Part shown: positions 2,977-40,698 of the stretch, piece after piece | How positions within the stretch are numbered: position 1 is the first letter of the stretch | Layout: each line of letters starts with the position of its first letter | DNA from: an uncultured bacterium | GTDB lineage: Bacteria > Omnitrophota > Omnitrophia > Omnitrophales > CAZLUT01 | NCBI GenBank assembly: GCA_964562805.1 | Contig: CAZLUT010000004.1 | Location: 1 to 55,012 of the forward strand | Reading direction: 5' to 3' | DNA: 55,012 nt | The notes under the pieces: generated by a model | Told to the model about the DNA's origin: nothing | The model's database searches: none | What the model saw: the letters and a program-made list of their open reading frames with translations, nothing else | Made by a program: the position numbers and the translations under genes

Positions 2977-3993
2977 ATGAAAGAACAGAAAAAAGCCCCA
3001 TCCAAACTTAAACCGGTAAATATATCGCTTGGCGAGCACTCAAAAGTTATTTTAGATTTTGAACAGCCCATAGCTGAACTTGAAAAGAAAATTAAAGAGC
3101 TGAAAGATTTAACAGAAGGCGGTATGGATTTAGGTGAGGAAATCAGCACTTTGGAAGAAAAATTGCAGCAGGCTCAAAAAGATGTTTATAAAAATTTAAC
3201 CCCTTGGCAGCGGGTTCAGTTGGCCAGACACCCGGCAAGACCTTATACTCTCGACTATATCAATCTTCTAATAGAAGACTTTGTCGAAATTCATGGGGAT
3301 CGACTGTACGGTGATGATAAAGCGATTATTGCGGGGTTTGGACGCTTGGGATCTCGGCCCGTTTGTGTGATCGGGCAGCAAAAGGGAAGAGATACAAAAG
3401 AAAATTTAATGAGAATGTTCGGAAGCGCTCACCCCGAAGGTTATCGGAAAGCCCTTCGCATTATGAGGCTAGCCGAAAAATTTAATGTTCCTATTATTAC
3501 TTTTATTGACACCCCCGGTGCTTATCCCGGTCTGGGTGCCGAAGAGCGAGGGCAAGCCAATGCCATCGCTTTTAATTTGAGAGAAATGGCAGATGTCGCC
3601 TCTCCCATTGTCACGATTGTTATTGGAGAGGGAGGTTCAGGAGGAGCCTTAGGTATTGCTGTTGCTGACCGTGTTTTTGTATTAGAGAATGCTTACTATT
3701 CGGTTATTTCTCCTGAAGGGTGCGCTGCTATATTATGGAAGAGCAACGCAAAGGCCCCTGATGCTGCCGCAGCACTCAAATTAACAGCAGAAGATTTAAT
3801 AAAGCTAGGCGTTATCGATGGAATGGTAGAGGAGCCGATGGGCGGCGCTCATCATGATGCCGGATATGTTGCCGAGAAAATAAAAGAGAAAATCGAATCC
3901 GCGCTCTCAGAATTAGAAAAACTTCCAGCCGAAAAACTTCTCGAGGAAAGATACCAAAAATTTAGAAAAATGGGTGTTTTTCACGAAAAATAA
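2977..3993 (+). CDS. accA: Acetyl-CoA carboxylase carboxyltransferase alpha subunit
   Basis: LDFEQPIAEL, ARHPARP, FIDTPGAYPG, GEGGSGGAL, YYSVISPEGCAAILW. Confidence 0.96.
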   Translation: MKEQKKAPSKLKPVNISLGEHSKVILDFEQPIAELEKKIKELKDLTEGGMDLGEEISTLEEKLQQAQKDVYKNLTPWQRVQLARHPARPYTLDYINLLIEDFVEIHGDRLYGDDKAIIAGFGRLGSRPVCVIGQQKGRDTKENLMRMFGSAHPEGYRKALRIMRLAEKFNVPIITFIDTPGAYPGLGAEERGQANAIAFNLREMADVASPIVTIVIGEGGSGGALGIAVADRVFVLENAYYSVISPEGCAAILWKSNAKAPDAAAALKLTAEDLIKLGVIDGMVEEPMGGAHHDAGYVAEKIKEKIESALSELEKLPAEKLLEERYQKFRKMGVFHEK

Positions 3994-4232: not shown

Positions 4233-6542
4233 ATGAACTTTAAAACAGTAATTAAAGGCTTCATCGTCGCATTAATCACCTTCGGTCTAATCAGCCCCTC
4301 TCCCTTCATCTCGCTGCCCATACATTCATTATTAGTTTCCGAAGCGTTTGCTGAGGAAAGCCTGATTGACCTCGAGGTTACAGCAAAAGAACAGGACGAG
4401 GAGCGGAAAAGGCTCAAAAAATCCGAGAAAGAAAAACAAAAAGCCATCAAAGAAGGAAACGTGCAGCTTTTGCCATATGGTGATGAAGATTTAAAAGAGC
4501 GAATTAAAAGGCGCGAAGAGGCAAAAAAACGGCTTGCTTATTTTAGAGAAGAGGCCAGAAAAAGAAGAGAGGCTGCAACAAAGAAAGAAAGCGAAGAGAT
4601 AAAAGTTGAAACTAAAGAAGCTGAGGAAAAAGAAGTAAAAATAAAAGAAAGAGAAGTTTCTGTTACCCCCGCGGTTTCTCAAATAAAAAAAGCAGTAAAG
4701 CCGAAAACGGTGACCCCTGAAAAAGATGTTATTCGACCAAAACCGCGTGAAGTCGTTATACGCAAAGTTACAAAAAGACCCGCCCCTATTGCGCAGCCAA
4801 CCCCTAAAAAAGCGGCTCATGTACCAATGGTGCCCGCAAAAACAGAGGGTGAAGCTTCACCAAAGAAACTTGTTACAAAAAAATCATTAACGGCCTCAGA
4901 AGAGGATGCGCTTATCAAAAAGGCCCTTGAGATTGAAAAGAAAAAACAGCAAAAACTTCTTTACGAGAAAAAACAGCTGGAAGATGAATTGTCCAAAATA
5001 GAAAAAGAAGCTAAGAAGATATCTCAAGAAGAAACCAAAAAACAAAAACAGCTGGAAAAGGCCCGTAAAGAAGAGGAAAAGCGCAAAAAAGCTATCTTGA
5101 AAGCTAAACGTAAAGAAGCTGAAAAGAAACGTAAGGCAGAGTTGAAACGCAGGAAAGAAGAAGAGAAGAAAAAGCGTAAAGAAGCCGAGCGTCAAGCTAA
5201 GGAAGAAAAGAAAAAACGGGAAACTGAGCTAAAACGTCAGAGAGAAGAAGAAAAACGAAAAAAAGCTATTCTCGAAGCTAAGCGTAAAGAAACTGAAAAA
5301 AAGCGCCAAGCGGAACTGAAGCTTAAAAAAGAACTTGAGAAGAAAAAGCGTAAAGAAGCCGAACGTCAAGCTAAGGAAGAAAAGAAAAAGCGCGGGGAGA
5401 GTGAGCCTAATTTTTTCCAAAAAGTATTTGGAATCACGCCTAAAACACCTGAACAAAAAGCCTTGGAGGCTAAACGTAAAGAAGCTGACAAGAAACACAA
5501 AGCAGCACTAAAGCGCCAGAGAGAAGAAGAAAAGAAAAAACGTGAAGCCGAATTAAAGCAGAAGAAAGAAGAAGAAAAACGAAAAAAAGCTATTCTTAAA
5601 GCTAAACGTAAAGAAGCTGAAAAGAAACGTAAGGCAGAGTTGAAACGTAAGAAAGACGAAGAGATTCCAAAACGAGCAAAGACTCTTACTGTTCCAGCTA
5701 AGCCTAACAAGAAACTTCTTAACAAGCATCTGACCCAGGCCCAAAACTCAATCGACCGGAAAGATTTTAGTGCGGCCCGCTCCTCTCTCGACAAAGCCTT
5801 GCAGCTTGACGCTCAAAACGTTATCGCGACCAATTTAATGGCAGTAGCCGTTGAGGGGGAGTTTATCGAGGATCAAAAAAGACTTCAGAATCAAAAGGTA
5901 ATTGCGGGGATGATCGAAGAAGAAAGAATGAGGGATAAGTTTTTAATGATGATGGATCGTATTGATTCCGAGATTCAAGAATTAACTCGGAAAGGCAACG
6001 CTCTTTATTCAAAAGGGAGAACCCCCGAAGCCAACCAGAAGTATCGCAAGGTAAGAGCGCTTGAAACTGAAAGACGCATGATTACTGAAAATCTTCTCGA
6101 GAGATTGGATAGAGAAGCTAAAGAATCAATGGAATCGTTATCACCCAAAGAGAAGAAAGCAAAAATTAATAATTTACTAAGACAAGCTGACATCTTAGCT
6201 AAACAAAGAAGATGGGATGAAGCGTCTGAGAAATATGAATCTGTTTTTGTGTACGATCCTCTAAACGCCCAAGCCTCCCAAGGTATTGATTATTTAAAAA
6301 AGCGTTTTATAAAACAGGAGAAAGAAAGAAAAGAATCGGCAGCCAAAGCTTTGGATGAAGATTTTGAAAATCGGATAAAGTTTTATGTTGAACAAGCTAA
6401 AACCGCTTTAGCTCAAGACGAAACGCATAAGGCCAATGTACTAATCGGTAGAGCTCTTGCTTTAGACCCAAAAAATCGAGAAGCCAAGAAATTATTAAAA
6501 CGTGCGCTAGAAGAAGGAGAAAAAAATAGGTATGAAACGTGA
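4233..6542 (+). CDS. Exported or membrane-anchored K/E/R-rich coiled-coil (TolA-like) protein with C-terminal TPR-like repeats
   Basis: Hydrophobic N-terminus ending AFAEE; long charged repeats; TPR-like helices (AARSSLDKALQLDAQN, YESVFVYDPLNAQA, RALALDPKNREA). ATG 4233 has a GAGG SD; the ORF track start is 4212. Confidence 0.7.
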   Translation: MNFKTVIKGFIVALITFGLISPSPFISLPIHSLLVSEAFAEESLIDLEVTAKEQDEERKRLKKSEKEKQKAIKEGNVQLLPYGDEDLKERIKRREEAKKRLAYFREEARKRREAATKKESEEIKVETKEAEEKEVKIKEREVSVTPAVSQIKKAVKPKTVTPEKDVIRPKPREVVIRKVTKRPAPIAQPTPKKAAHVPMVPAKTEGEASPKKLVTKKSLTASEEDALIKKALEIEKKKQQKLLYEKKQLEDELSKIEKEAKKISQEETKKQKQLEKARKEEEKRKKAILKAKRKEAEKKRKAELKRRKEEEKKKRKEAERQAKEEKKKRETELKRQREEEKRKKAILEAKRKETEKKRQAELKLKKELEKKKRKEAERQAKEEKKKRGESEPNFFQKVFGITPKTPEQKALEAKRKEADKKHKAALKRQREEEKKKREAELKQKKEEEKRKKAILKAKRKEAEKKRKAELKRKKDEEIPKRAKTLTVPAKPNKKLLNKHLTQAQNSIDRKDFSAARSSLDKALQLDAQNVIATNLMAVAVEGEFIEDQKRLQNQKVIAGMIEEERMRDKFLMMMDRIDSEIQELTRKGNALYSKGRTPEANQKYRKVRALETERRMITENLLERLDREAKESMESLSPKEKKAKINNLLRQADILAKQRRWDEASEKYESVFVYDPLNAQASQGIDYLKKRFIKQEKERKESAAKALDEDFENRIKFYVEQAKTALAQDETHKANVLIGRALALDPKNREAKKLLKRALEEGEKNRYET
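5100..5647 (+). repeat. Intragenic direct repeats encoding charged helical units
   Basis: 50-bp exact repeat AAAGCTAAACGTAAAGAAGCTGAAAAGAAACGTAAGGCAGAGTTGAAACG at 5100-5149 and 5598-5647; a second near-exact ~50-bp pair (KKKRKEAERQAKEEKKKR) near 5165 and 5340. Confidence 0.85.
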
Positions 6543-11810: not shown

Positions 11811-11842
11811 TACTAACCACTACCAACTAACTACTAACCACT
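11811..11842. repeat. Degenerate heptamer array (TAACCAC family)
   Basis: tac-TAACCAC-TACCAAC-TAACTAC-TAACCAC directly after the glmS stop. Confidence 0.7.
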
Positions 11843-11861: not shown

Positions 11862-12035
11862 ATGGCTAAGAAACTAAAAAAAATGTCTCGATCTAAAGTG
11901 AAGACTTTTAAAATTAAAAATCGCAAAGGTTATGCCGCCATTTGCATGAATAATCTAACCGAAGGCCCCTCAAGCGCTGAAGCCGTAAGACGCATGGCAA
12001 AAGCTGTAAAAAGACAAGGTTATCTTTTAGCTTAG
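11862..12035 (+). CDS. Small basic hypothetical protein (57 aa), absent from the ORF track
   Basis: SD GGAGG at 11850-54; translates MAKKLKKMSRSKVKTFKIKNRKGYAAICMNNLTEGPSSAEAVRRMAKAVKRQGYLLA*. Confidence 0.72.
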   Translation: MAKKLKKMSRSKVKTFKIKNRKGYAAICMNNLTEGPSSAEAVRRMAKAVKRQGYLLA

Positions 12036-18288: not shown

Positions 18289-18870
18289 ATGAAAAAAACT
18301 TATGAAGAAATAAAAGCTATTCAGAAGGAAAAATCTAAAAACAAGCACCTTCCTTTAACAGGTGTTCTTGAAAATATTCGCAGCCTCTACAATGTGGGAA
18401 GTATTTTTAGAACGGCTGATGGCGCTGGATTCGAGCAATTGGTTCTGACGGGGTATACGGGGGCACCTCCCAGTAAAGAAATTGAAAAAACAGCTTTGGG
18501 AGCTACTCATTTTATTCCGTGGCATCAGTTTGATTCCCCGCTTGATTATTTAAAGTCTATTAAAAATAACAGCACAATCGTAGCTCTTGAGCATAGTCAT
18601 AAAAGCATTCCTTATACCGAGATTGCTTTACCTCAAAATAAACCTGTTATTTTAGTTGTAGGCAATGAAATTACCGGCATTGAAAATAAAACGCTCGAGT
18701 TTTGTGATATTCACACCGAGATCCCTATGATGGGCCAGAAGCATTCTCTTAATGTTTCGGTAGCGTTCGGCATCCTGGCGTTTCATTTGGCGATGCTGCT
18801 GAAACAGCAAACCACAAACCACAAAACACAAAACACAGACAAAACACAAACCACAAAACACAAACAATGA
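18289..18870 (+). CDS. TrmH/SpoU family RNA methyltransferase
   Basis: LENIRSLYNVGSIFRTAD, VVGNEITGI, EIPMMGQKHSLNVSVA; the tail is a translated repeat. Confidence 0.9.
   Translation: MKKTYEEIKAIQKEKSKNKHLPLTGVLENIRSLYNVGSIFRTADGAGFEQLVLTGYTGAPPSKEIEKTALGATHFIPWHQFDSPLDYLKSIKNNSTIVALEHSHKSIPYTEIALPQNKPVILVVGNEITGIENKTLEFCDIHTEIPMMGQKHSLNVSVAFGILAFHLAMLLKQQTTNHKTQNTDKTQTTKHKQ
18808..18867 (+). repeat. Heptamer array CAAA(C/A)CA read through in the TrmH tail
   Basis: caaacca caaacca caaaaca caaaaca cagacaa aacacaa accacaa aacacaa acaa, encoding QTTNHKTQNTDKTQTTKHKQ. Confidence 0.8.
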
Positions 18871-25334: not shown

Positions 25335-28300
25335 ATGAGTGTCTTTAATTGGATTAAAAGACCGGTAAGTTTAATCACGGTTGTCTGCTTTCTTATGACG
25401 ACGGTTCTTTTTAGTTATCCATCCAATTCCTATGCTGCAGTCCAGCCGACGTTAGTTCATGAAGATGAGGAAGAGGCCAAAGAATATGTCCAAAGATTGG
25501 CTGAAACGATTGAAGATGAAGGTAAAGATCTTCCGGCTGTTCACTTGCATAGGGAATTAGAAAAGCTTGAGCCTAAAGTCCCCGTTGCTACAGCCGCGAG
25601 TTTGGGTAAGGAGAGCAACCCTTTCCGAATCTTATCAAGCGATATTGGCCGAGAATTAGTAGTGCAATGGGTTAAAAGCTATCCAAATGAAGGTCGCGAG
25701 GAGAATTATAATGCAATATCAGAGGTAATTGAGTTTCTTAGCAATCCTAAAAATACGCAAGGCGATTTTGTTTCTCGAGCGATCCAGCGGTTTCCCATTA
25801 TTAATAATTTACATCAAAGATTTAAAGACGCATTGCAAAAACCAACCATTGAACTTCCTGCTTGTGTTGAAAAAGAAGCTGTATTAAGGGAATTTATTCA
25901 AGGTCCTACTTTTATTAACATCGGAGCTGGCCTTGATCTATTGGGAGAGCGGAGTGTTAAAGTGAATTCGAAAGTTAGCCAAGCTATTGGTATTGATATC
26001 GAAGAACAAAGAAAAACTCCTTACCCGCCTGGTGTTAGTTTTAAGCGAATGACAGATCCATCGGTGATGCCTCTCGGCAATAACGTAGCAGACACAGCCG
26101 CAATGACTTTTGTGCTGCATCATGTGGATGTAGACCGGAAAAAATATTTAGAAGAAGTGAAGCGTATTATTCGTCCTGGAGGCAGGTTGGTTGTTTTGGA
26201 AGACACCTTTAGCCACGAGTTGCCGGTTGAGTATGTAGATGAGGTGTCAAAAGCTAAAAGCCAGAAAATTTCAGAATCTTTTTCAGAATTAAAGAATGAC
26301 GAAGAACGCCTGAGCTTTTTGCATTTTATAGATTGGTTTACTCACAATTTTGTGAACCGCTCAAGAGCACCGCTCGTTCCCGGCAATTACGAACCCATGG
26401 AAGTTTGGAAATCTATATTTGAAGAGGCAGGGTTCAAAGTTATTCATCAACAATATCTTGGTTTTTCTGCGATGGGATCACGCAATCCTGCCAGCAGAGG
26501 GCTTTTTGTTTTGGAAAAGCCGAATACCGAATACCGAATACCGGGCATTGGAATTTCCGGTGCGAGTTTGGGAGATGAGGAGCGCGACCTCTCTCAAAAG
26601 AAAAGAGTTAGAAAGATAACGCTAGCGACAGCCGCGGCCTTACTGGCAGCCGCAGTTGCTGCAGTGATTACTATCTATTATTGGGCGGCTCCTAAATATG
26701 CTGTTTTTCCGGACGATGGGAAAGTGCCGAGTGCCGTATCTATGCACCGCGGACCGTTTCTCACCGTTGGAGAATTTGAACCAGGTTTTTTTCGTTCTCC
26801 TCAATGGACAAAACAGTACCTTCGCCGCCTCACTGGACACGCAGCTTCTTCTACGGATCCTATTTTCCTTGCGCGAGGGGGAAAAAACATTTTAATTCTG
26901 GATATGAAAAAAGGACACCTTAACCGCAGCGATCTCCTATCTAATAACTTTTTAACTGATATGGACAGGCAGGGCGTCATGAGACCTCCTAAAGTTGATA
27001 TAGTTGAGACCAACAAAGGGGAGCCAGCGGATGAAGAACCCCTGGAAATTAGCGCAGTTATTGACGGTATTCGCGCCGGTGAAGTGATCGCTCTTCCTCA
27101 CACCTTTAACTCAATGGTAGAGAGGGTCACCTCTGATAAACCGGATGCCTTCGAGCGTAAAGGGAATAACCTTATTATAAAAAGAACCCTTGAGCCGGGT
27201 GAGACATTGCAGCTTCGTTGGGCGCTCCGCCGCTTTACCGAAAATAATGAGTTGTCCTATACGCCTCAACCGGTCCCGCCCCGTCAGCTTACGACCCTTC
27301 CGAAAGTTTTTATTGATGAACTTGATAAAGCACGAGGGAAAGGTGATGAGGCTAAGCTTTGGCATATTGCTGAGGCTATACATAATAATTTCGAATATGG
27401 CTTAATCCCTTTTAGCCGCAAGGGAAGAGAGACATGGGGCGAGGCCGCCACGCGCGTTCTAAAAAAAGAAAAGAAGATTGTTTGCGATTGCGACGTTCTA
27501 GCACAGTATGCTTGGCTTTTTGCCCGCTATCTCAATATGGATGATGCAGCCATAGCGTTGGGGTTTGTCAATCTAGATAATGACCGCAACATCAGCATAG
27601 AAGAAGGACACGCTATATTTCTCGTACGGGCAACCATCAAGGGCAAGACGCAGTGGTATGCGTTGGATGTTACCGGTTCGGAATGGGTCGGTGTTGCTGA
27701 TATAGAATGGGAGCGACGAGAAAGGTTGCTTAGATGGGCGGCACTGTATGGAAAATCTGGTCGTATAAGAATCGATTCTTTCCCGCGAAGAGAACAGATG
27801 CACAGGAGCAAGCATGCTGTTGATGAGGTCGATGAGCTCGAAGAGGCTATCAGAAATGGAGATGTGACCTTGTCAGAAAAGGATATTTTTAAATTCATCG
27901 AACAGCTTAAGGGGTGGGAGAATCACTATCGGGCACACAAAATATTGCGTGCGGTCGGGAGGCCGGCGGTTATACCGCTCCTTAAAACACTTGAGACTTC
28001 AGATGACTATTCTCAAAGGGGTTCAATAATCAGGGTGCTGACCGGTATGGAAGACTTTAGGGATTCTAAGGCAATCAATTTGTGTATAAGTATGCTTGGA
28101 AGCAAAGAGTATGATGTCCGCGGAGGAGCTGCACAATTTTTAGCCCGATTCGGTGAGGCAGTTCATGGTCGAGTGCTTCAAATTGCTATGCGAGGAACAA
28201 GAGGGGAAAATTCCCTGAATCAACGCAAAGGCGCTCTTGAGGCTCTTGGTTATTTGAAGGGCGCAAGATCAGTTGATGTTTTGATTGAGGCGTTGGCTAT

Positions 28301-30026
28301 AGAGAGGTTGAACAACCAGGCAATGTTGTCATTGGTCAAGGTCGGCAAAGAGGCTGCCCCCGCTCTTATCAAAGCGCTCGACCGTGAAAATATAGAGATC
28401 CAAATCGGTGCGCTGTATGCCTTGGGGAAGCTTAAGGATGAGCGAGCGATCGGTCCGATTATGAAGGCGCTTGATCATAAAAATTTAAAAGTTCGACAAG
28501 CCGCAATACGAGCTTTGGTAGATCAAAGGGGTGAGCAGGCGATCGAAACAATTTTAAGCAATTTAGACAGATTCAAGGGCCGGGATCTGGATACGACTCT
28601 GTTTCGTAGTGGTTTCAAAGAAGAATTTGAAGAAAAATTAGCGGAACGATTGCTCAAGATTGTACTAGGAGAAGCTGGCAACGAAAAAGACTACAAGTTG
28701 CGCATTGTCGCCTTCGAGGCATTACAATGGGACTTTAAAACGGACAGACAAGTAATGGAAAAGCTGATAGACCTGTTTCGCAAACAGCTTCCTCAAGATA
28801 AGCTCAACCTCGATCGACAATCGGATGTTTTGTGGATAGAAATAGTCAATTTTTTCTCGTACTTGCGGGATAACAAATCGCAAGACAAAATAAAAAATTT
28901 GTTACTGCAGACGCTACAGACACACAAAAATCAGGATGTAAGAAAGAGGGTGATCGGCGCTCTTATGAATTGGGAGGGTGTCCTGAAAGAAGAAATTCAG
29001 CGGAATAAAAACCCCGAAATTCTTAAGGAAGCCTTAAAACGTTGGCCGGATCGGAATTGGAACTTCAACGCTGATAAGGAGCACCATAATATTAGGTCGT
29101 GGCTTATGGTGTGGGATGAAACAGAGCCGGAAACTGTGATGGAAATCGCCAAACAATATGCAGATTACCCTCCTTATGGAGATAGGGAGCGGGTAAAAAT
29201 ACGAAAGGCGCTTGCGGGAGTTATAGATAGAGAGGATTTGAGTCCAGTCCAAAAAAGATCCCTTAATGAATATCTTAAAACTTTCGATGAAAAAGTCACC
29301 CGAGAACAAAAAGAGGAAGAACAGCGCCGAGAACAATGGGAAAAAATCCGGGAAGAAGAAAAGAAAAAGGTTATTACGACGCCACCAATAGAGTTAAAAA
29401 AAACCGTTCCAATATTACTCGAGAAAGAGCTTGAAGAAGGTAAGAAAACTACGCCAAAAAAGGAAGTAGTTCCTGAAGAGGATGCTAAAGGTGCGAGTTT
29501 GGGCAAGGAAGAGGAATATGACAAAATCTACGAAACTCTCACCAACCTCACTAAACCCGTTAACGTCTTTATGAGTTATAAGGACTATAAAGCTCTGTCT
29601 CAAGATCAAAGGGAAGAGCTCTTTGCCCTAGCCACTCTTAACCCTAAGAAACTAAAAGTAGTTATCTATGGGGCAGAGTCATATGAAAAACGAGGTGATA
29701 ATATCTTTATCACAACCGATGAAGCTCGAGTCTCACTTAACCTAGTGCCTAAACTTGATAACAATATCCAACTTTCAAAAATAGATGAGAAGGTAATGGA
29801 GGACTTAGCTGCTCTTAAAGATAAGACCGCCTTCTTTAGATATCAGGATGACTCCAAAGGTCTTCTTGGCGTAGCCCTTCTATTGTCTCAAGCCGCTGAT
29901 AAAAAACTCTTTGCTGAAAAGTACGGTCTTGAAGAGCGTGACGGTTTCTTTATCGCTGTCTCTGAATTTCTGCACAGCCTTGTCCAAGAATTTGAAGCCC
30001 AGCTAGTTATTAAAATAGCCGCTTAA
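25335..30026 (+). CDS. Large exported modular protein: signal peptide / class I SAM methyltransferase / TM + transglutaminase-like + HEAT repeats / C-terminal domain ending IAA
   Basis: Signal-like N-terminus; NIGAG and VLHHV...EVKRIIRPGGRLVVLE; CDCD...GHA...WYALD; HEAT/PBS-lyase repeats (ALYALGKLKDERAIGPIMKAL); three ASLG junctions; SD AGAGG. Confidence 0.8.
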   Translation: MSVFNWIKRPVSLITVVCFLMTTVLFSYPSNSYAAVQPTLVHEDEEEAKEYVQRLAETIEDEGKDLPAVHLHRELEKLEPKVPVATAASLGKESNPFRILSSDIGRELVVQWVKSYPNEGREENYNAISEVIEFLSNPKNTQGDFVSRAIQRFPIINNLHQRFKDALQKPTIELPACVEKEAVLREFIQGPTFINIGAGLDLLGERSVKVNSKVSQAIGIDIEEQRKTPYPPGVSFKRMTDPSVMPLGNNVADTAAMTFVLHHVDVDRKKYLEEVKRIIRPGGRLVVLEDTFSHELPVEYVDEVSKAKSQKISESFSELKNDEERLSFLHFIDWFTHNFVNRSRAPLVPGNYEPMEVWKSIFEEAGFKVIHQQYLGFSAMGSRNPASRGLFVLEKPNTEYRIPGIGISGASLGDEERDLSQKKRVRKITLATAAALLAAAVAAVITIYYWAAPKYAVFPDDGKVPSAVSMHRGPFLTVGEFEPGFFRSPQWTKQYLRRLTGHAASSTDPIFLARGGKNILILDMKKGHLNRSDLLSNNFLTDMDRQGVMRPPKVDIVETNKGEPADEEPLEISAVIDGIRAGEVIALPHTFNSMVERVTSDKPDAFERKGNNLIIKRTLEPGETLQLRWALRRFTENNELSYTPQPVPPRQLTTLPKVFIDELDKARGKGDEAKLWHIAEAIHNNFEYGLIPFSRKGRETWGEAATRVLKKEKKIVCDCDVLAQYAWLFARYLNMDDAAIALGFVNLDNDRNISIEEGHAIFLVRATIKGKTQWYALDVTGSEWVGVADIEWERRERLLRWAALYGKSGRIRIDSFPRREQMHRSKHAVDEVDELEEAIRNGDVTLSEKDIFKFIEQLKGWENHYRAHKILRAVGRPAVIPLLKTLETSDDYSQRGSIIRVLTGMEDFRDSKAINLCISMLGSKEYDVRGGAAQFLARFGEAVHGRVLQIAMRGTRGENSLNQRKGALEALGYLKGARSVDVLIEALAIERLNNQAMLSLVKVGKEAAPALIKALDRENIEIQIGALYALGKLKDERAIGPIMKALDHKNLKVRQAAIRALVDQRGEQAIETILSNLDRFKGRDLDTTLFRSGFKEEFEEKLAERLLKIVLGEAGNEKDYKLRIVAFEALQWDFKTDRQVMEKLIDLFRKQLPQDKLNLDRQSDVLWIEIVNFFSYLRDNKSQDKIKNLLLQTLQTHKNQDVRKRVIGALMNWEGVLKEEIQRNKNPEILKEALKRWPDRNWNFNADKEHHNIRSWLMVWDETEPETVMEIAKQYADYPPYGDRERVKIRKALAGVIDREDLSPVQKRSLNEYLKTFDEKVTREQKEEEQRREQWEKIREEEKKKVITTPPIELKKTVPILLEKELEEGKKTTPKKEVVPEEDAKGASLGKEEEYDKIYETLTNLTKPVNVFMSYKDYKALSQDQREELFALATLNPKKLKVVIYGAESYEKRGDNIFITTDEARVSLNLVPKLDNNIQLSKIDEKVMEDLAALKDKTAFFRYQDDSKGLLGVALLLSQAADKKLFAEKYGLEERDGFFIAVSEFLHSLVQEFEAQLVIKIAA
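25596..25606 (+). repeat. Module junction 1 (GCGAGTTTGGG, ASLG)
   Basis: In frame at aa 88; identical to junctions 2 and 3. Confidence 0.8.
26520..26543 (+). repeat. Intragenic heptamer repeat (CCGAATA)x3 + CCG
   Basis: Three exact units (21 nt, frame-preserving), ending 15 nt before junction 2. Confidence 0.85.
26559..26572 (+). repeat. Module junction 2 (GGTGCGAGTTTGGG, GASLG)
   Basis: ASLG at aa 410; 14-bp identity with junction 3. Confidence 0.8.
29490..29503 (+). repeat. Module junction 3 (GGTGCGAGTTTGGG, GASLG)
   Basis: ASLG at aa 1387; followed by AAGGA as in junction 1. Confidence 0.8.
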
Positions 30027-30033
30027 TCCCCCG

Positions 30034-30055
30034 CAGATCTTAGATCTCAGATCTT
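30034..30055. repeat. AGATCTY heptamer array
   Basis: CAGATCTTAGATCTCAGATCTT, just after the giant gene stop. Confidence 0.8.
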
Positions 30056-40648: not shown

Positions 40649-40660
40649 TATCCCTTCGTT

Positions 40661-40698
40661 CTTAGATCTCAGATCTCAGATCTCAGATCTCAGATCTT
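40661..40698. repeat. AGATCTY heptamer array, 5 units
   Basis: CTT(AGATCTC)4 AGATCTT. Confidence 0.9.

Follow-up and report, generated by a model that had tools for sequence, protein, structure and literature searches.

A perfect heptanucleotide repeat as probable translated linker at the end of a methyltransferase module in a multi-module protein of a probable Omnitrophota bacterium

Among the long simple-sequence repeats of bacteria, heptamers show the strongest over-representation; they are located at the ends of open reading frames (ORFs) and in peripheral parts of proteins (PMC4679880, PMC4692102). Examples are the TAACTGA direct repeats of marine Beggiatoaceae, cyanobacteria, and Bacteroidetes (PMC4679880), the cyanobacterial STRR, and the GGGAATC and GGGGA(C/T)T repeats of Xanthomonas and Nostoc (PMC4692102). 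The ATCTTTC tract of the Haemophilus influenzae genes hmw1 and hmw2 counts 11 to 63 units in nature, none below 11, and lies in the 5' UTR, where its effect is mediated by an RNA hairpin and RNase III (PMC12721329). The Omnitrophota, for their part, produce long multi-enzyme proteins which, in the passages of two preprints devoted to them, are described as combining unrelated enzyme modules per ORF, the PF08241 methyltransferase and HEAT scaffolding being among the commonest, and as bearing membrane helices; these passages also mention a suspected post-translational cleavage, of which the cleavage points are not located (bioRxiv 10.64898/2026.06.07.730766, 10.1101/2023.11.21.568195).

The DNA analyzed here, hereafter the window, is a stretch of 55,012 nucleotides from an uncultured marine bacterium, probably belonging to the Omnitrophota. 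The ORF list and translation reveal a multi-module ORF of 1563 aa (25335..30026, forward strand), the gene being present in four assemblies. It encodes, in this order, an N-terminal hydrophobic leader, a class I SAM methyltransferase, a membrane helix, and an orphan region that may adopt a Cys-His-Asp fold, followed by HEAT repeats and by a C-terminal domain whose last residues are IKIAA. Pfam profiles for Methyltransf_11 (29.9 bits, for a cut-off of 21.2) and HEAT_2 (81 bits) match on either side of the repeat described below, in one common frame, and, together with the orphan regions, they represent unrelated modules combined in a single ORF, as in the Omnitrophota-type long proteins. The hydrophobic helix ITLATAAALLAAAVAAVITIYYW (aa 428-450; 26616..26684, forward strand) is preceded by KKRVRK, and aa 415-450 form one long helix in the AlphaFold model. 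A word-indexed search of 5.8 billion proteins, run for the N-terminal region and for the last 1167 aa, returned the self-match only, and comparison of the whole protein with genome contigs gave no match, so that no full-length orthologue was found in the collections searched. Sampled words of the gene were also absent from the RNA runs of the same study.

The methyltransferase cassette, from Leu90 to Pro396 (25602..26522, forward strand), matches a complete free-standing methyltransferase from its first to its last residue. It is a predicted class I SAM-dependent methyltransferase (PF08241), according to its profile match above the curated cut-off and its modeled Rossmann-like fold, in which strands and helices alternate and the final strands span model residues 309-319 and 327-335. 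The pLDDT is 85-97 over most of the domain. The last strand (model residues 327-335, i.e., aa 386-394) stops at aa 394, and the mean pLDDT is 90 at aa 390-399, versus 33 at aa 400-409, remaining below 50 across aa 400-431. The peptide LFVLEKP (aa 390-396; 26502..26522, forward strand) corresponds, based on the family consensus and the model, to the final beta-strand of the module and to its conserved C-terminus, the consensus of the aligned family being ...PxGxFVLEK(P). An earlier note on this DNA had likened this peptide to the last beta-strand of a free-standing class I enzyme, and the C-termini of the stand-alone proteins show that such enzymes do naturally end there: LLVLEKTRAG (P0007), FFVFEKSVV (P0016), FVLEKPVD (P0025), FVLEKE (P0117), and FFVLQAADSN (P0014), each directly followed by the stop.

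In the alignment (A4), the free-standing P0016, P0018, P0088, and P0117 start a few residues from Leu90, which is the Leu of an upstream ASLG motif, and stop 0-4 residues past VLEK. Because stand-alone homologues start and stop at its two boundaries, the module is a complete gene-equivalent. At E ≤ 1e-3, 509 homologues were found. The module is shuffled among many architectures, occurring on its own, at the C-terminus, or in the interior of proteins that reach 6219 aa. The closest ones are multi-domain proteins from two Omnitrophota MAG loci (L021, 53% identical, and L023, 45% identical). In these, as in other multi-domain homologues, unrelated low-complexity linkers follow from the exact VLEK(P) end onward.

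It is at this very end that the repeat is found. Tandem Repeats Finder reports at 26520..26543 (forward strand) a perfect array (CCGAATA)x3.4, with a period of 7, 3.4 copies, and 100% matches. The sequence, ...TTG GAA AAG CCG AAT ACC GAA TAC CGA ATA CCG GGC ATT..., is in frame in the long ORF and encodes P396-NTEYRIP, the first CCG being the codon of Pro396, the last conserved residue of the module. The earlier note had counted exactly three units (21 nt) followed by the second junction of the ORF. The perfect in-frame heptamer is indeed there, but it extends over 3.4 units (24 nt), and a further 18 nt encoding GIGISG (26544..26561, forward strand) separate it from the junction motif. The resulting spacer before GASLG is 12 aa long, and would be 5 aa long without 21 nt of the tract, compared with 6 aa in P0047 and about 10 aa in P0017, two distant giant proteins. 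All six frames of the CCGAATA unit are free of stop codons, which is not the case for AGATCTT and ACTAACC, and this tract is the sole CCGAATA tandem array of the window. An inverted partner array was discarded, the unit occurring on the minus strand as single copies only. No RNA structure is predicted at the tract (z = -1.2) and no promoter or terminator was found there; a role as an RNA structure or terminator was, thus, rejected on the RNA-fold and terminator predictions. An assembly artefact was rejected as well, since four assemblies agree.

Junction 2 consists of the 11-mer GCGAGTTTGGG (26562..26572, forward strand), which encodes ASLG. Exact copies are present at 25596-25606, 26562-26572, and 29493-29503, all in frame in the long ORF, placing ASLG at aa 88, 410, and 1387. 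Given the codon usage, the chance that the three copies share the same Ala, Ser, and Leu codons is about 1.3e-4. Each 11-mer also carries a TTG, which is the codon of Leu90 at junction 1 and of Leu412 at junction 2. The methyltransferase module is bracketed likewise in P0047 (GASLG at 3673 and 3986) and in P0017 (AESLG at 4488 and 4795), which contain 11 and 4 motifs, respectively. Among 150 homologues, [AE]SLG occurs 27 times, versus 7.1 ± 2.6 in shuffled sequences. Module boundaries, therefore, share a short peptide, as do those of Omnitrophota-type multi-module proteins. Between the window protein and P0047, the C-terminal cassettes show no detectable similarity (E = 0.82), and a full-text literature search for GASLG yielded nothing relevant.

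Heptamers are abundant in this DNA. The window contains four perfect period-7 tandems that are 21 nt or longer, versus none in 200 first-order Markov shuffles, and no perfect tandem of period 5 or 8-12 at the same threshold; Tandem Repeats Finder reports 12 period-7 arrays in all. The heptamer tract is, thus, more than chance. The other arrays lie 6-23 nt past stop codons, consistent with their earlier description as located mainly at gene ends, but 8 out of 10 are also located 1-38 nt before the next start, so that what they mark is the cistron junction and not simply the end of a gene. For example, an AGATCTT/C array (30035..30055, forward strand), identical in four loci, is found 9 nt past the stop codon that closes the long ORF, with 32 nt between it and the start that follows. 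Another array, of CAAACCA type (18808..18865, forward strand), is translated as the C-terminal tail, QTTNHKTQNTDKTQTTKHKQ followed by the stop, of a SpoU methylase ORF whose SpoU_methylase profile match stops at residue 164 of 193; this array ends 1 nt short of the start of the next gene and is identical in six assemblies. The CCGAATA tract differs from the other arrays of the window in being inside an ORF, at a module junction, instead of at a cistron junction. It belongs to neither of the intergenic unit families of the window, AGATCTC/T and AACCACT, and it is perfect, whereas most intergenic arrays show 75-96% matches with Tandem Repeats Finder. Its perfection could reflect youth, or upkeep by some process.

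The same unit is widespread in metagenomes, with (CCGAATA)n arrays of 2.6-17 units in at least 120 contigs, spanning 32-68% G+C. These arrays are mostly non-coding, 89 out of 134 being outside stop-free stretches of at least 120 aa, and they often lie directly upstream of start codons (e.g., L136, L083, and L036). Some are, nevertheless, in frame within loops of real proteins. In three hybrid kinases (L140, L095, and L109), translation of the array yields PNTEYRIP within loops of the receiver domains, and a glucuronate isomerase (L119) contains one in the opposite orientation.

The tract is, thus, likely to be an ordinary bacterial heptanucleotide repeat, standing at a module junction instead of a cistron junction and tolerated as a translated linker, presumably without any switching function. 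It begins at Pro396, the final conserved codon of a module equal to a whole free-standing enzyme, and would be translated as the opening of a disordered spacer, NTEYRIP-GIGIS, followed by the GASLG junction motif and the membrane helix. It would be tolerated because the spacer is free of structural constraint, the unit is stop-free in all frames, and 21 nt keep the approximately 1150 downstream residues in frame. As for its origin, the earlier note had proposed that the module was captured together with its downstream intergenic repeat. This is less likely, considering that the unit is outside the intergenic families of the window and that, although free-standing homologues do stop near EKP, as anticipated, no heptamer array follows at five stand-alone loci. 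On balance, we would rather place the origin of the tract in a gain, or an overwriting, within a pre-existing spacer of 5-12 residues. The 5-aa spacer that remains without the tract is close to the 6 aa of P0047, and fits a gain inside an existing spacer. Going from one unit to three by single-unit slippage passes through out-of-frame states, so that such a gain would have required a 21-nt event or the overwriting of earlier codons.

Another way of explaining the location of the tract is to consider it as the relic of a cistron junction, the ORF resulting from a read-through fusion and positions 26523-26567 being a former intergenic spacer with its array. The equivalence between the Leu90-Pro396 cassette and a whole free-standing protein speaks for this, as does the tract's position, directly (0 nt) at the natural end of the protein and 24 nt upstream of the TTG of Leu412, to be compared with the 6-23 nt and 1-38 nt of the other arrays. 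Moreover, the TTG of junction 1 aligns a few residues from the start Met of P0016, P0018, and P0117, the SpoU ORF constitutes a precedent for a gene-end array read as a tail, a pentamer array, (GTGTW)5, overlaps the end of the gene for the stand-alone P0016, and (CCGAATA)n arrays elsewhere are often found directly before start codons. A fusion of this kind is, nevertheless, unlikely, as it faces the same two obstacles as capture, namely the unit type and the bare stand-alone loci, and the GASLG-bracketed cassette layout, with its short spacers, is common to the distant P0047 and P0017; the fused layout is, therefore, old, and not a recent read-through.

The second proposal of the earlier note was a phase-variation switch, in which one-unit slippage toggles between a product of about 410-430 aa (leader and methyltransferase) and the full 1563 aa. 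The premise is sound: the unit length is no multiple of three, and gain or loss of one unit would, as computed, lead to a stop after 13 or 30 codons and the loss of the approximately 1150 downstream residues, while a three-unit change restores the frame. The tract is, in addition, perfect, and owing to its boundary site the truncated product would probably still be a complete enzyme. Yet the 3.4 units are far from the 11-63 of the H. influenzae hmw tract, the tract is located not near the 5' end of the ORF but after its first quarter, and the downstream part has no independent start, except for a TTG lacking a clear ribosome-binding site. Nor is any length polymorphism seen: the window, L001, L003, and L004, four assemblies derived from different samples, all have the same tract, as do two run contigs (X1 and X3). 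The contigs of two other runs (X2 and X4) break near the array, and they also break every few hundred bases elsewhere. This invariance is a weak test, because the assemblies are near-clonal (0-1 mismatch in 8-10 kb) and the comparison relies on assembled contigs (Logan contigs of 2-6x depth for the public runs) rather than reads. The longer arrays of the genome, of 5.4 and 8.7 units, are likewise identical in 6-7 assemblies, and none of the heptamer arrays, this one included, varied in length among the 3-7 assemblies compared, all from these near-clonal populations; heptamer arrays are, thus, not visibly unstable in this genome. A scan of metagenomes for any unit number between the exact flanks gave no match, while the flank pattern does match the window itself; the collection evidently does not contain this population, and is uninformative on variants. 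Altogether, a switch of this type appears highly improbable, and the claim is not upheld.

There is equally little to recommend the reading of the long ORF as a fused operon still expressible in pieces, in which a change in unit number toggles between fused and split expression. The junction TTG would then act as an internal initiation site, or its Leu as the P1' residue of a cleavage site (GAS|LG), and the array, 24 nt upstream of the junction 2 TTG, would be a pre-start element like those before ordinary genes. If this were true, a unit change would switch the fused or split state rather than just destroy the downstream part. Finally, that NTEYRIP was selected as a protein motif, for example as a Tyr-containing docking or modification site, is scarcely credible, even though the peptide recurs in several unrelated proteins, since it is the DNA array itself that recurs, with variable unit numbers, in both orientations (PNTEYRI or YSVFGIR by strand), and mostly outside ORFs, while no homologue of the methyltransferase module examined has the peptide after VLEK and the region is disordered in the model.

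A translated heptamer linker implies that a three-unit tract of this kind need not be a switch, and is in itself of little consequence. The tract is useful mainly for marking a boundary, as it begins exactly at the end of stand-alone methyltransferases. With the repeat at the homologue end and the upstream ASLG at the homologue start, the module appears as a whole gene-equivalent bracketed by (G/A)ASLG, which makes this motif a candidate for the cleavage or initiation points of the giant proteins of Omnitrophota, which a preprint leaves unlocated (bioRxiv 10.1101/2023.11.21.568195).

Compared with the systems described so far, the tract adds a further heptanucleotide repeat that is tolerated as a translated linker. 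Like the known bacterial heptamer repeats, it has a period of 7 that is over-represented with respect to other periods, in arrays of 2 to about 40 tandem copies, and one unit is spread over very different organisms. Known repeats lie within tens of bases of stops and starts, with occasional copies in ORFs, mainly at the protein periphery, whereas the present one has a CCGAATA unit, is embedded in a 1563-aa ORF where two modules meet, and must keep a multiple of three units for some 1150 downstream residues to stay in frame. With phase-variable repeats, such as those of hmw or the tetranucleotide tracts inside ORFs, it shares a unit that is not a multiple of three, so that a unit change alters the product; unlike hmw, it counts 3 units, with no length polymorphism seen and no RNA structure predicted. 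The (G/A)ASLG motif, which separates modules here, is absent from the passages of both preprints on cleavage, linkers, and polyproteins. As in the long proteins of Omnitrophota that these passages depict, the 1563-aa ORF strings enzyme modules together and possesses a methyltransferase, HEAT repeats, and a membrane helix; it differs from the giants described there in its small size and in having one spacer made from a heptamer repeat.

The CCGAATA tandem at 26520-26543 is a perfect heptamer array (period 7, 3.4 copies, 100% matches; Tandem Repeats Finder), which lies in frame just before junction 2, as the earlier note had described, and which occurs only once in the window. It is located within the forward-strand ORF 25335-30026, encoding the 1563-aa multi-module protein P0001. 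The codons TTT GTT TTG GAA AAG lead into the tract, read as CCG AAT ACC GAA TAC CGA ATA CCG and translated as Pro396-NTEYRIP, followed by GGC ATT GGA ATT TCC and then by GGT GCG AGT TTG GGA. The frame really continues through the repeat, since Pfam domains are found in one frame on both sides: Methyltransf_11 upstream (aa 234-287, 29.9 bits vs a cut-off of 21.2) and HEAT repeats downstream (81 bits). CCGAATA is stop-free in all six frames; AGATCTT and ACTAACC have sense-strand stops. No RNA structure, promoter or terminator was found at the tract. It is a heptanucleotide repeat that the protein tolerates as a translated spacer between modules.

The boundaries of the methyltransferase module were delimited by searching aa 92-396 against 1.84 billion representative proteins, which yielded 509 homologues at E<=1e-3. 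The conserved family end is PxGxFVLEK(P), and many free-standing members terminate 0-4 residues past VLEK(P), with C-termini such as LLVLEKTRAG (P0007), FFVFEKSVV (P0016), FVLEKPVD (P0025), FVLEKE (P0117) and FFVLQAADSN (P0014). These bear out the proposal that LFVLEKP is the natural end of a stand-alone methyltransferase. Multi-domain members carry unrelated, often low-complexity linkers from precisely VLEK(P) onward, including the closest module relatives (45-53% identity), found in MAGs labelled Candidatus Omnitrophota and Planctomycetales. In the same alignment, free-standing members start no more than a few residues from Leu90, which is the Leu of the upstream ASLG motif. As both ends and starts match its limits, the cassette Leu90-Pro396 is a complete gene-equivalent. 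In an AlphaFold2 model of aa 60-480 (8 aligned sequences; mean pLDDT 73, and 85-97 over most of the methyltransferase domain), the last strand of the methyltransferase spans aa 386-394, and the mean pLDDT drops from 90 at aa 390-399 to 33 at aa 400-409. Values stay below 50 up to aa 431, followed by a long helix that includes a hydrophobic segment (aa 428-450). Together, homologue ends and model indicate that the repeat, whose first codon is the last one conserved in the module, forms the start of a disordered spacer.

The N-terminal part of P0001 (25335-25640), a hydrophobic leader and an acidic stretch, weakly resembles the N-terminus of P0006, a 371-aa homologue (E = 0.007, single comparison), compared with which P0001 has about 30 additional aa, holding junction 1 (ASLG). 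From this weak alignment, leader and methyltransferase may be old neighbours.

The module is bracketed by a recurrent motif. The 11-mer GCGAGTTTGGG, encoding ASLG, has three nucleotide-identical copies in the window (25596-25606, junction 1; 26562-26572, junction 2; and 29493-29503), all in frame in the P0001 ORF; with the codon usage of the window, the chance of common Ala, Ser and Leu codons in three ASLG motifs is about 1.3e-4. The 5181-aa homologue P0047 contains 11 (G/A)ASLG motifs, dividing it into domain-sized pieces, including one TPR and two methyltransferase pieces. The homologous modules lie between ASLG 88 and 410 in P0001 (322 aa apart), GASLG 3673 and 3986 in P0047 (313 aa apart), and AESLG 4488 and 4795 in P0017, three proteins with just 26-31% shared identity. 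The motif is absent from the closest module relatives (L021-L025). Its position coincides with a natural N-terminus, the initiator Met of free-standing homologues aligning no more than a few residues from the motif Leu. Judging from these sequences, (G/A)ASLG acts as a cassette delimiter and is a candidate cleavage or internal-start site. PF08241 and HEAT, among the commonest parts of Omnitrophota long proteins, the cleavage points of which are stated as unknown, are likewise combined in P0001, where the methyltransferase is of PF08241 type (10.64898/2026.06.07.730766; 10.1101/2023.11.21.568195). At the other end, P0001, P0012, P0013 and P0047 terminate in hydrophobic-x-x-(S/A)A (IKIAA, INSAA, VYISA and MAQAA, respectively), which may be a shared C-terminal signal; the last cassettes of P0001 and P0047 have no similarity detectable by BLAST (E = 0.82).

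Regarding the origin of the tract, the earlier interpretation held that the module was captured together with its downstream intergenic repeat. Its first half stands: domain shuffling of a whole gene-equivalent is well supported by the cassette limits. Its second half, joint capture with the repeat, is not shown: the DNA of five loci encoding stand-alone homologues has no heptamer array downstream. In P0016 (L147, 2396-2425), the last codons and stop, directly past the conserved FEK, coincide with a pentamer array, (GTGTW)5, made of GTGTA and GTGTT units. The distance from module end to GASLG is 12 aa in P0001, and would be 5 aa with 21 nt removed, vs 6 aa in P0047 and approximately 10 aa in P0017, which fits a gain or overwriting within an existing spacer. 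Somewhat more probably than not, the tract arose within the spacer; a relic of an intergenic region is rather unlikely. A simple slippage origin is disfavoured, since growth from one unit to three by single steps requires out-of-frame intermediates. No whole-protein orthologue of P0001 was found in the searched collections.

The tract had also been proposed as a phase-variation switch. The arithmetic is right: the loss of one unit leads to a product ending in EYRALEFPVRVWEMRSATSLKRKELER and the gain of one to a product ending in RIPNTGHWNFRCEFGR, each then truncated by a stop codon (computed frames), and the frame is regained when the tract changes by three units. Nevertheless, a switch lacks support. 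Just 3.4 units are present, compared with 11-63 in nature for a heptameric phase-variable tract of Haemophilus influenzae (PMC12721329), and no length variation was seen in the window, in three other assemblies of the locus from different samples (L001, L003, L004) and in spanning contigs of two public runs, a weak test on near-clonal populations of marine metagenome origin (<=1 base difference in 8-10 kb) at 2-6x depth, using assembled contigs rather than reads. Longer control arrays are also identical (40660-40697, 5.4 units, seven assemblies; 18808-18865, 8.7 units, six assemblies), so the heptamer arrays of this organism are without visible instability.

Heptamer repeats are a genuine trait of this genome, as the window contains four tandems of period 7 that span 21 nt or more without a mismatch, vs none in 200 shuffles, and none of periods 5 and 8-12. 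Tandem Repeats Finder detects 12 period-7 arrays, mainly of two unit families, AGATCTC/T and AACCACT, to neither of which CCGAATA belongs, plus a CAAACCA-type array. The placement at gene ends described earlier was confirmed: arrays other than the tract lie 6-23 nt past stop codons, with the next start codon 1-38 nt downstream in eight out of ten, and are cistron-junction marks. One of the eight, the array 11812-11842, is followed 19 nt later by the start of a small, very basic 57-aa ORF (MAKKLKKMSRSKVKTFKIKNRKG..., 11862-12035), with a GGAGG site and missing from the 100-aa ORF list. In the SpoU methylase ORF (18289-18870), the CAAACCA-type array 18808-18865 is translated as the final 20 residues (QTTNHKTQNTDKTQTTKHKQ, then stop), past the Pfam domain, which stops at residue 164 of 193, and ends 1 nt ahead of the ATG of the next gene.

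Scanning public metagenome contigs for three exact CCGAATA units returned at least 120 contigs; among the matches listed, G+C content ranges from 32 to 68%, arrays count 2.6-17 units, and 89 out of 134 are not contained in any stop-free stretch of >=120 aa. Several are immediately 5' of the start codons of CysN-like, MoaC-like and HAD-like genes, and one, in frame and in reverse orientation, is within a glucuronate isomerase (L119; domain Pfam-confirmed). In Pfam-confirmed hybrid histidine kinases, PNTEYRIP is in frame in the receiver-domain loop before PIIAMTAHAM (L140 1417-1450, L095 1346-1372, L109 1009-1038), the same loop each time and beside other repeat-derived sequence; this loop, part of a conserved signalling domain, may be a hot spot where heptamer arrays recur. 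Over-representation among the long simple-sequence repeats of bacteria is greatest for heptamers, possibly via polymerase slippage; heptamers are concentrated close to the ends of ORFs, and copies within ORFs persist mainly at the protein periphery (PMC4679880, PMC4692102). The distribution of CCGAATA, mostly non-coding, near starts and in protein loops, agrees with these published bacterial heptamers, to which the tract adds another, as an inter-module spacer.
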